NCBI RefSeq assembly: GCF_044647545.1
Contig: NZ_CP172818.1
Length of the DNA stretch: 64,000 bases
Source of the DNA: Escherichia coli
Lineage (GTDB): Bacteria > Pseudomonadota > Gammaproteobacteria > Enterobacterales > Enterobacteriaceae
Reading direction: 5' to 3' (one strand)
Shown here piece after piece: positions 37,183 to 45,745 of this stretch. Below the pieces are notes generated by a model. The model did not search any database, had not been told where the DNA came from, and was given only the letters and a program-made list of their open reading frames with translations. Positions within the stretch are counted from its first letter, which is position 1; every line of letters starts with the position of its first letter. A program made the position numbers and the translations under genes.

Positions 37183-37288
37183 GGATCTGACAATAACCTT
37201 CACGAAAAAAATTAGCTTATAAAGTCTGGGGGAATTACTCTCGCCACGTTAACGAGAGTAATTTTATTGATATTAATCTCCTGATACC

Positions 37289-37825
37289 TTACCCCCGTCC
37301 AAACTCCAGTCGCTGCACATTCACCATCCCAGGCTTCTCAGCAGCACTGACATCAATTTGTGTCACCCGCAGCGCATATTTTTCATCCAGTGCTTTTAAC
37401 CAGTTCAGCAGGTCATTAAACACCACAGGTTCTATCCAGACTTGAATATTCTCCCCACGCTCGGCTATCCGCTTGATGACCACCGAGTGCGCGGAAGCAC
37501 TGTCACTGATGACCCGCGATACCTGCGCAGGCGTTGTTGTGGCAGATTTTCGCGCTGCAATAATATCCGGCGCAGTGCTCTTCAGTCGCGCGTTCATCGC
37601 CACGAGCTGCTGCAACATCGTCTCCTGTTGCTCAATCCGTTCGCTCAACGGCTGCCAGATGACGACGTAATATCCGACGCTAAACAGGAACACCACCGCT
37701 GCCAGTAACATGCCCTTTTCACGCGGAGAACGCCCCGCCAGGTGTTGTGTCAGCCAGTGTTCGCCACGGCTTAACTGGCGTTCACGCCATTGCTGAAAAT
37801 AGTGAATAAATTTATCGCGTAACAT
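37289..37825 (-). CDS. yghD: Type II secretion GspM-like protein (cryptic)
   Basis: 178 aa ORF, position downstream of pheV. Confidence 0.8.
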   Translation of the reverse strand: MLRDKFIHYFQQWRERQLSRGEHWLTQHLAGRSPREKGMLLAAVVFLFSVGYYVVIWQPLSERIEQQETMLQQLVAMNARLKSTAPDIIAARKSATTTPAQVSRVISDSASAHSVVIKRIAERGENIQVWIEPVVFNDLLNWLKALDEKYALRVTQIDVSAAEKPGMVNVQRLEFGRG

Positions 37826-44100: not shown

Positions 44101-45745
44101 GGTTAAAGGTGGCGGTATCGCGCGTAACGTTTTCCGGCTCAACGAGAGAAGGCGCTTCCGTAATGTACGCCAGCTCGTTTTTATCCCAGGCGCGTTTTTC
44201 GCCGAAGGCCAGCCAGTAGTTTTTATCATTACGCGCCATCAGAATCGGGAATGCCGCGTTGGAGATATTCACCACTGCCTGACCGCGCGCATTACCGGTG
44301 CTGCCATAGAAGTTGGTAGAGTCATGGAATACATGGAACTTGCTGACAGATTTGTAGTTCGTATCCACACCCCACAGCTTGTTAATAACGCCCTGAATCT
44401 GGCCGTCATTAACATTGCGTGCTGTCAACGAGAACCAACGCTGAGAGTTGCAGCCCCCAAGGGAGTCACAAATCGCCGTATCAATCTCTTTAGCCTGCCC
44501 GGATTCAAACTGCTCAAGAAATTCGTTTGTCCGCTCAAAGGTTTGATCGCCTTCGCTCAACGCCTCGCCATTGGATAACGAGAGATTGATAATCTCGTTG
44601 ATTACGTTGGGATACTCGGCAAAGACCTTGCGCACTACGTCCGGCACTTCACGCTCATCATTTTTTCCGGCCTGGGAGTAACGATGAATAAGCTGATCAA
44701 TATTCGCGCCGCGAACTTCGTCACCCAGTTCAGTCAACGCAATGGTCGACTTATTGCCGCGCACTGAGCCCAGTTCAAAGGTGTCGATACCAAAGGAGAT
44801 GGTTTCGCCCCAGCTGAAGTTGAATTTGCCGTTTTCGCCAGTTACGCCACGGCCTGAGCTGGTGTAGTAATTTACGCCAACCACACCATTGCCCATGCTA
44901 TCCACCAGTCGGCCTTCGGAAAGAATGATTTCAGTGGGTTGATACTGATAAAACTGTTCCGCGTTAGCCGACACGAAGGACGCGTTCAGATCCGGTTTTG
45001 TTCCCGGCGTGGTGACAGGCACGACCGGTGAGGTATGAGTGGATGGCGCTTTATCGGTCGCAGCATTGTTTTCCACCTCTTCATTGACCAGCTTTTTGAA
45101 CTCTTCCGGTGCCAGATCGATTTGCTTATACAGCGAGTCGAAACGTTTACTCTCGATCACCGAGGAGAACGTCAGGCAAACCTGTTCTGTATCCGCCGGA
45201 CAGCTGTTACTGGACGTTACCAGCGAAACCGCATTGCTTTTCTTGTCATCGGAAGCTGCCAGTTCTTGCGCGTCCTCAAGACTAAACGACACTTTTTCAA
45301 CCGCACGCAGGCTACGCGCAGCTTCTGACTGGGTGTCGAAGGTAGCAATTGTCGTGTTGTTCCCTGCCACACAGGTGACTTTGTCGCCTGGCGTAAAGGT
45401 AAAGCCATCGCTGGATTCACCATTACAAGTAGCACCAGTTATCCGCTGGCTTCCGCCCAGGGTCAGATAACCCGTTTTCGTAGGAACAGGTTCTGGCTCC
45501 GGTTCTGGTGTTGGCTCAGGATCAGGTGTCGGTTCCGGCGTAGGTTCTGGGTCCGGCGTTGGCTCAGGCGTCGGCTCCGGGTTTGGTGTTGGATCAGGTT
45601 TCACTTCCGGCAAAGACCCTGTTCCAGAATCTACAGGCGGCGTATCGGAGGAAGATCCGGAGCCACCGCCATCACAACCGGCTAACAGGGTTGCACTCAA
45701 AATAGCCGCTAAAAGCGATTTCTTATATTTAAATTTCTTATTCAT
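41180..45745 (-). CDS. yghJ: Large lipoprotein metalloprotease SslE/YghJ (M60-like mucinase, T2SS substrate)
   Basis: Start at MNKKFKYKKSLLAAILSATLLAGC (lipobox); HEVGH zinc motif encoded near 41818-41835; about 1520 aa. Confidence 0.92.
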   Translation of the reverse strand: MNKKFKYKKSLLAAILSATLLAGCDGGGSGSSSDTPPVDSGTGSLPEVKPDPTPNPEPTPEPTPDPEPTPEPTPDPEPTPEPEPEPVPTKTGYLTLGGSQRITGATCNGESSDGFTFTPGDKVTCVAGNNTTIATFDTQSEAARSLRAVEKVSFSLEDAQELAASDDKKSNAVSLVTSSNSCPADTEQVCLTFSSVIESKRFDSLYKQIDLAPEEFKKLVNEEVENNAATDKAPSTHTSPVVPVTTPGTKPDLNASFVSANAEQFYQYQPTEIILSEGRLVDSMGNGVVGVNYYTSSGRGVTGENGKFNFSWGETISFGIDTFELGSVRGNKSTIALTELGDEVRGANIDQLIHRYSQAGKNDEREVPDVVRKVFAEYPNVINEIINLSLSNGEALSEGDQTFERTNEFLEQFESGQAKEIDTAICDSLGGCNSQRWFSLTARNVNDGQIQGVINKLWGVDTNYKSVSKFHVFHDSTNFYGSTGNARGQAVVNISNAAFPILMARNDKNYWLAFGEKRAWDKNELAYITEAPSLVEPENVTRDTATFNLPFISLGQVGEGKLMVIGNPHYNSILRCPNGYSWEGGVDKNGQCTRNSDSNDMKHFMQNVLRYLSDDKWTPDAKASMTVGTNLDTVYFKRHGQVTGNSAEFGFHPDFAGISVEHLSSYGDLDPQEMPLLILNGFEYVTQVGNDPYAIPLRADTSKPKLTQQDVTDLIAYLNKGGSVLIMENVMSNLKEESASGFVRLLDAAGLSMALNKSVVNNDPQGYPNRVRQQRATGIWVYERYPAVDGALPYTIDSKTGEVKWKYQVENKPDDKPKLEVASWLEDVDGKQETRYAFIDEADHKTEDSLKAAKAKIFEKFPGLKECKDPTYHYEVNCLEYRPGTGVPVTGGMYVPQYTQLSLNADTAKAMVQAADLGTNIQRLYQHELYFRTNGRKGERLSSVDLERLYQNMSVWLWNKIEYRYENDKDDELGFKTFTEFLNCYANDAYTGGTQCSDELKKSLVDNNMIYGEKSVNKAGMMNPSYPLNYMEKPLTRLMLGRSWWDLNIKVDVEKYPGAVSAEGEKVTETISLYSNPTKWFAGNMQSTGLWAPAQKEVTIESSASVPVTVTVALADDLTGREKHEVALNRPPKVTKTYELKANGEVKFTVPYGGLIYIKGNSPQNESAEFTFTGVVKAPFYKDGAWKNALNSPAPLGELESDAFVYTTPKKNLEASNFTGGVAEFAKDLDTFASSMNDFYGRNDEDGKHRMFTYKNLTGHKHRFTNDVQISIGDAHSGYPVMNSSFSTNSTTLPTTPLNDWLIWHEVGHNAAETPLTVPGATEVANNVLALYMQDRYLGKMNRVADDITVAPEYLEESNGQAWARGGAGDRLLMYAQLKEWAEKNFDIKQWYPEGDLPKFYSDREGMKGWNLFQLMHRKARGDEVGKTKFGERNYCAESNGNAADKLMLCASWVAQTDLSEFFKKWNPGANAYQLPGASEMNFEGGVSQSAYETLAALNLPKPQQGPETINQVTEHKMSAE

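Follow-up and report, generated by a model that had tools for sequence, protein, structure and literature searches.

A K-12-type remnant of the T2SS-beta operon downstream of pheV in an Escherichia coli sequence of doubtful provenance

The type II secretion system beta (T2SS-beta), the Vibrio-type T2SS of Escherichia coli, is encoded by the operon yghJ(sslE)-pppA-yghG-gspCDEFGHIJKLM. We analysed a 64,000-nucleotide stretch of DNA assigned to E. coli (contig NZ_CP172818.1 of NCBI RefSeq assembly GCF_044647545.1; the whole stretch is called the window hereafter) and found that its interval 37183-45745, next to the tRNA gene pheV, is very probably a K-12-type remnant of this operon, and nothing that we found contradicted the identity of the locus. 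The internal gspD-K deletion, the role of YghG as a pilotin and the dependence of SslE secretion on T2SS-beta are already known from published work; here we give the exact breakpoints, the genes that were lost and kept, and the evidence on whether the window represents a natural chromosome. For comparison we used the genomes of ECONIH1 and WP2-W18-ESBL-10, which we take to be of sequence type 648 (ST648-type hereafter).

Extent of the deletion and position of its junction

The breakpoints were mapped against two intact loci, those of RIVM_C037884 (L001) and WP2-W18-ESBL-10 (L016). The last base of the left flank is window position 38791, equivalent to 6004 in L001 and 6206 in L016, and the first base of the right flank is window position 38790, equivalent to 14005 and 14207, respectively; relative to both loci the deletion measures 8,002 bp. 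The two flank alignments overlap by a TA dinucleotide, and other similarity at both sites is limited to CGGT(T)A. The sequence shows a single 8,002-bp deletion at a 2-bp TA microhomology, through which codon 72 of gspL now adjoins the final base pair of gspC. A preliminary description of the locus, made from the sequence alone, had called for such an alignment to an intact locus and had placed the junction at about 38720-38753. That segment is merely the gap between two open reading frames (ORFs), and the real junction, 38790/38791, lies about 40-70 nt away, inside the 3' end of the yghF ORF.

The deleted segment comprises gspL codons 1 to 71/72, the whole of gspK, gspJ, gspI, gspH, gspG, gspF, gspE and gspD, and the final base of the gspC stop codon. 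Because this stop codon, TAA, became TAC at the junction, GspC is read through into a 12-residue tail, YRLFCPPYWKKS, in a frame that differs from that of gspL. GspC is therefore not a fragment: its full 319 residues are present (38792-39748; tblastn coverage 1-319) and the 12-residue tail follows them. GspL has no start codon left and lacks the N-terminal portion of the cytoplasmic domain. Its residues 69-392 map to 38801-37830 by tblastn, the NCBIfam match covers model positions 106-391 only, and the cytoplasmic T2SSL domain falls below the Pfam threshold (18.5 bits vs 25.5).

To search for the missing components, all 14 proteins encoded by an intact locus were compared with the entire 64-kb window by tblastn. 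No match was obtained for the secretin GspD (a 686-aa query from the intact ST648-type locus), for the platform protein GspF, or for any of the five pseudopilins GspG, GspH, GspI, GspJ and GspK. The only match of the ATPase GspE was the PilT-like yggR (19958-20695), at 39% identity. The absence of gspD to gspK asserted in the preliminary description thus held not only within the interval, where homologs would have told against it, but over the entire 64 kb. The yggR product is a PilT/PilU-type ATPase that belongs to a type IV pilus set and not to a second T2SS, and its gene is the sole core-T2SS-like sequence in the window. The assembly-platform set is likewise incomplete, with GspC (residues 1-319 plus 12 aa) and GspM (178 aa) complete and GspL truncated.

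The same junction is present in K-12. The W3110 genome and the window could be aligned ungapped over the junction, with 81 of 81 surrounding nt identical. Since the two flanks lie 8,002 bp apart in intact loci, this ungapped alignment identifies the deletion as the internal one of K-12 type, in which gspD-K and part of gspL are lost, and the deleted configuration of K-12 proposed earlier could be confirmed base for base. The annotation of K-12 W3110 by the NCBI pipeline PGAP likewise gives a 331-aa GspC and an N-terminally incomplete gspL pseudogene. It has been reported that K-12 lost gspD-K of T2SS-beta through an internal deletion and is without a system that secretes SslE (PMC3707838), and K-12 BW25113 has served as a non-producer of SslE, several of its T2SS genes being deleted (PMC8881592).

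Genes retained downstream of pheV

Downstream of pheV the remnant consists of gspM/yghD, a 5'-truncated gspL/yghE, gspC/yghF, yghG, pppA and sslE, all on the minus strand. All of these had been named in this order in the preliminary description, and all were recovered with ARAGORN, Rfam, Pfam and NCBIfam:

37068-37143, plus strand: pheV, tRNA-Phe gene with anticodon GAA (ARAGORN; Rfam RF00005, 68 bits)
37144-37288: pheV-yghD spacer of the K-12 'empty-site' type, without integrase, island or kps capsule cluster
37289-37825, minus strand: yghD, that is gspM-beta, 178 aa, intact (Pfam T2SSM, E=2.3e-46; NCBIfam NF007274 YghD, 405.6 bits vs a cut-off of 352)
37827-38791, minus strand: gspL-beta remnant (yghE), codons from about 72/73 to 392 kept, start codon and first 71-72 codons lost
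37827-38720, minus strand: yghE as a mechanical ORF, 297 aa from a TTG (GspL_C, E=6e-49; sub-threshold trace of T2SSL)
38790-38791: deletion junction with 2-bp TA microhomology (alignment to the intact loci L001 and L016)
38753-39748, minus strand: yghF, that is gspC-beta, 331 aa (Pfam T2SSC; NCBIfam GspC equivalog NF007242, 733.7 bits, residues 1-319 of 319)
39766-40176, minus strand: yghG, encoding the AspS/GspS-beta pilotin lipoprotein, 136 aa, lipobox LSGC (Pfam T2SSS_2, E=1e-16)
40242-41051, minus strand: pppA, prepilin peptidase, 269 aa (Pfam A24_N_bact, E=2.5e-34; Peptidase_A24, E=8.7e-24)
41180-45745, minus strand: sslE (yghJ), 1521-aa lipoprotein and M60-like zinc metalloprotease (NCBIfam and Pfam)

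The GspM, YghG, PppA and SslE proteins are 100% identical to those of the intact ST648-type locus, and the pilotin (AspS/GspS-beta) and prepilin peptidase that T2SS-beta requires are both present according to Pfam. Hallmarks of a pheV-integrated island were not found: there is no integrase ORF between pheV and yghD and no repeat of the pheV 3' end in 36900-46300, and Rfam and repeat scans of the interval returned only pheV and chance repeats. The Eps T2SS of Vibrio cholerae, with AspS and AcfD, resembles the window in having an AspS-type pilotin and an SslE/AcfD M60 lipoprotein (PMC3542185; NCBIfam SslE_AcfD_Zn_LP). It differs in that the window has no secretin or other core component, leaving only accessory and cargo genes to be compared.

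SslE and its secretion

SslE matched the NCBIfam model NF037973 (metallo_SslE) with 3498 bits against a cut-off of 3000, over positions 1-1519 of 1519, and contains the Pfam domains DUF4092, M60-like_N and Peptidase_M60 (E=6.6e-37). Its N-terminus is MNKKFKYKKSLLAAILSATLLAGC, and the lipobox LAGC was read from the translation at residues 21-24. The HEVGH zinc motif noted earlier in this lipoprotein was located at residue 1305 (window 41819-41833), and the length first given as 1520 aa is 1521 aa here when counted from the ATG. Two public contigs, one from GCA_022551275.1 and one from Logan SRR32302134, end within a codon of the sslE start; the former has an intact T2SS-beta and 0 mismatches to window 38790-41200.

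The mucinase activity of SslE and its T2SS-dependent surface exposure are known from experiments on other strains (PMC4014459, PMC3707838). As the junction shows, the locus has lost the secretin GspD, the ATPase GspE, the platform protein GspF, the pseudopilins GspG-GspK, and the GspL start codon with the first 71-72 codons, and is left with GspM, a start-less GspL fragment, full-length GspC with 12 additional residues, the pilotin YghG, PppA and the cargo SslE. Published genetics suggest that without pore, motor, platform and pseudopilus no secretion machine would assemble. SslE, if expressed, would be Sec-exported and lipidated but, unable to cross the outer membrane, would reach neither the cell surface nor the medium. 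We infer that SslE would not be secreted by this locus, because published genetics in K-12, strain W and enteropathogenic E. coli (EPEC) show its dependence on T2SS-beta. In strain W, secretion of SslE requires the gsp genes and pppA (PMC3707838). YghG/AspS is the pilotin of the secretin, and SslE is absent from the secretome of an EPEC AspS mutant, a GspD mutant having been tested as well (PMC3542185).

Some considerations weigh against this account. The provenance anomalies described below imply that the deletion may stem from the assembly or template behind the sequence, rather than from the organism to which most of the bases belong, and that no real organism need carry it. A T2SS-alpha elsewhere in the genome lies outside the scope of the 64-kb window. 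SslE from this locus might still be secreted or displayed on the surface by another route, for example through T2SS-alpha (gspC-O) or in outer-membrane vesicles. The operon could be expressed in part, because the ORFs of sslE, pppA, yghG, gspC and gspM are intact, and this much speaks for such a route. However, secretion of SslE was lost in W and EPEC upon deletion of T2SS-beta genes, pppA or the pilotin (PMC3707838, PMC3542185), in W even though a second prepilin peptidase, GspO, was available (PMC3707838), and K-12 possesses T2SS-alpha and has yet been reported as not producing SslE (PMC8881592). We therefore regard secretion by another route as highly improbable.

One junction on two haplotypes

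The K-12 yghD-yghJ locus resembles the window in gene order, in the type of its 145-nt pheV-yghD spacer, in the junction, and in the 331-aa GspC with its 12-aa tail. It differs in the length of SslE (1520 aa vs 1521 aa in the window), in the flank haplotype, which is ST648-type in the window, and in 69 additional nt of the pppA-sslE spacer that are missing from the window (41087-41126). At the same indel-rich spot of this spacer, a T of the ST648-type genome is absent from the window at 41090. The window is thus not a K-12 sequence. Its core flanks are 98-99% identical to K-12; across the locus the range is 80-97%, or 94-97% when sslE, at 85-95%, is counted separately, and instead of a K-12-lineage flanking haplotype we found about one single-nucleotide polymorphism (SNP) per 15-25 nt relative to K-12 outside 38716-38944. 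In 384 of 5,426 complete E. coli genomes, window 37000-40300 was matched contiguously over 80% or more of its length, at best with 97.0% identity. Other genomes among the matches listed had the gspL-gspM half and the gspC-pppA half at separate places, or pheV alone.

The window sequence beside the junction is that of ST648-type genomes. Compared with WP2-W18-ESBL-10, segments 37284-38791 and 38790-56778 each had one 1-nt indel and 0 mismatches, and 5312-37150 showed at most 5 SNPs to ECONIH1. In both of these genomes T2SS-beta is intact, kps capsule-export genes adjoin gspM, and an integrase-bearing island is located at pheV. The intact operon sslE-pppA-yghG-gspC-M is found in the ST648-type strains (ECONIH1 and WP2-W18-ESBL-10) and in H10407, E2348/69 and W. 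Relative to the ST648-type version, the window lacks the 8,002 bp (gspD-gspK and the gspL 5' end), the kps cluster, and the pheV island between pheV and gspM.

The flank SNPs of K-12 are common to intact K-12-type alleles (L019, L024 and L027). These and the ST648-type alleles natively have the same sequence over the 229 nt that surround the junction (38716-38944). A single junction therefore sits on two haplotypes, each with intact relatives. We also considered the 229-nt patch without SNPs between window and K-12 as an imported recombination tract but did not accept it as evidence of one, since the intact L019, L024 and L027 are identical there too.

The best database match is BS-01 (NZ_CP172816.1, E. 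coli), which has the same junction. Its left flank is identical to K-12 and its right flank to the ST648-type, and it returns to identity with K-12 inside sslE. It carries clustered indels and many annotated frameshifts, and is either a natural recombinant or a chimeric assembly.

Composite or natural origin of the window

The structural features of the window seem to have been taken over from a template resembling K-12, and parts of it are not biological sequence. In our view the window is most likely a composite: such a template would have supplied the deletion and the pheV spacer, and an ST648-type strain with an intact T2SS-beta the bases. It could have arisen if a long-read assembly collapsed or fused strains and was then polished with majority-strain reads, if a consensus was built with a reference as guide, or through reconstruction of another kind. 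The near-perfect agreement on both sides of the junction with genomes in which the 8 kb, the kps cluster and a pheV island are present argues for such an origin, as does the BS-01 sequence, a similar K-12/ST648-type mosaic with indel noise.

The pheV-yghD spacer points in the same direction. Of the 145 nt at 37145-37289, 139 are covered by 31-mers that also occur in K-12, and none by 31-mers of the ST648-type reference stretches compared. The switches between ST648-type and K-12-type sequence fall exactly at the homology ends, and bases are blended there. On the pheV side (37144-37150), 3 nt are missing and one base is as in the ST648-type; on the yghD side (37284-37290), a C as in the ST648-type is combined with an extra T as in K-12.

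Further segments that are present in the ST648-type but not in K-12 are missing, shortened or noise-like in the window, without the pattern of natural divergence. At 4833-5326, an ST648-type accessory segment with a prohibitin-family gene is garbled. Between speB and speA (9476-9565), 900 nt of the ST648-type, including a 732-nt hypothetical gene, are reduced to 91 nt. Between hemW and yggM (24086-25265), the ST648-type has a 3.2-kb TRAP-transporter operon and K-12 has 126 nt, whereas the window has 1.16 kb, whose best match is a TRAP permease at about 80% identity over 283 nt. The segment 56779-64000 is homologous to an ST648-type cluster (fatty acyl-AMP ligase, epimerase, acyl carrier protein, spt and lptG/lptF-like genes), all of whose ORFs are broken in the window, and its best E. 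coli match reaches 84.9%. Within it, at 57916-63994, stretches of perfect identity, up to 500 nt long, are interspersed with homopolymer-rich blocks of roughly half identity.

Mismatches between this garbled block and the ST648-type occurred at rates of 14.2/12.6/14.8% at codon positions 1/2/3, with a ratio of transitions to transversions (ts:tv) of 0.44, 262 gap columns, and a longest ORF of 182 aa, compared with genes of 350-560 aa in the ST648-type. In a control comparison of the window sslE with K-12, the corresponding values were 5.1/3.6/15.8% and 1.43. A natural divergent allele for 56779-64000 was thus rejected: there was no codon-position bias, the ts:tv ratio was 0.44, the ORFs were broken, and the best E. 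coli match was at most 85%. None of the complete E. coli genomes matched the noise-like blocks above 85-89%, which also argues for a composite. The gene records agree with this: an index of 153 billion genes has no record of the GspC fusion protein in its ST648-type version, whereas the unfused 319-aa allele is found in 923 blocks of that index, with gspD adjoining in the places shown.

Other observations fit a composite less well. The remnant itself (37284-45745) is clean and all of its ORFs are intact, and the right end of the window is not K-12-like, with no IS5 and no K-12 31-mers. Because of this right end, a plain K-12 reference-guided consensus was rejected as the sole cause: there is neither K-12 sequence nor IS5 beyond 56790, and the 1.16 kb at 24086-25265 contrast with the 126 nt of K-12.

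It is also conceivable, but in our judgement unlikely, that an ST648-type strain really carries the K-12 junction, whether by short-patch transfer, by flank replacement up to a homology boundary, or by exact recurrence. A transfer could have proceeded by homologous recombination with both crossovers within the identical 229-nt stretch 38716-38944. Given the native identity of this stretch in both allele types, a transfer inside it would leave no trace. BS-01, in which the same junction has K-12-type sequence to its left and ST648-type sequence to its right, might be an intermediate of such an event, and the pheV-adjacent locus is hypervariable, with repeated loss of T2SS-beta reported (PMC3707838) and other deletions seen among the genomes that we compared. 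However, a natural event requires a very short conversion patch and, in addition, another event of the same precision at the pheV spacer, whose right-hand switch falls within about 5 nt of the homology end. Exact recurrence is unlikely because the microhomology is only 2 bp and other natural deletions use other breakpoints. The K-12 junction on ST648-type flanks was absent from the 5,426 complete genomes, the gene index and the Joint Genome Institute (JGI) metagenomes; in the last of these, the two junction matches were K-12 itself and none was of the ST648-type. The noise-like blocks elsewhere in the window would also be left unexplained by a natural event.

Other losses of T2SS-beta

Other public E. 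coli genomes have deletions of T2SS-beta at the same locus, with core gsp genes lost and flanking genes kept as in the window but with different breakpoints. We observed at least five further deletion architectures. In L022, gspS is joined near gspM, at the equivalents of window 37880 and 39024; in L026, a truncated sslE is fused to a truncated gspH; in L021, L023 and L028, pitB adjoins gspM; and strains A10, SZQ1 and N61 retain partial cores. The T2SS-beta locus decays repeatedly, consistent with the published description of the locus adjoining pheV as hypervariable and of T2SS-beta as repeatedly lost (PMC3707838).

Implications

The biological gain from this locus is small, and the added value of the analysis lies in an exact breakpoint map and a warning about provenance. 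The window should not be taken as evidence that T2SS-beta was lost in an ST648-type strain, and provenance should be checked in the same way before anything else is concluded from it. Should the window be faithful after all, which we doubt, it would represent an ST648-type (phylogroup F-like) E. coli with the exact K-12 junction on the flanks of an intact operon. Either a loss-of-function allele would then have moved between distant lineages in a patch of less than about 230 bp without leaving a SNP trace, or the 8,002-bp deletion, with its 2-bp microhomology, would have recurred.

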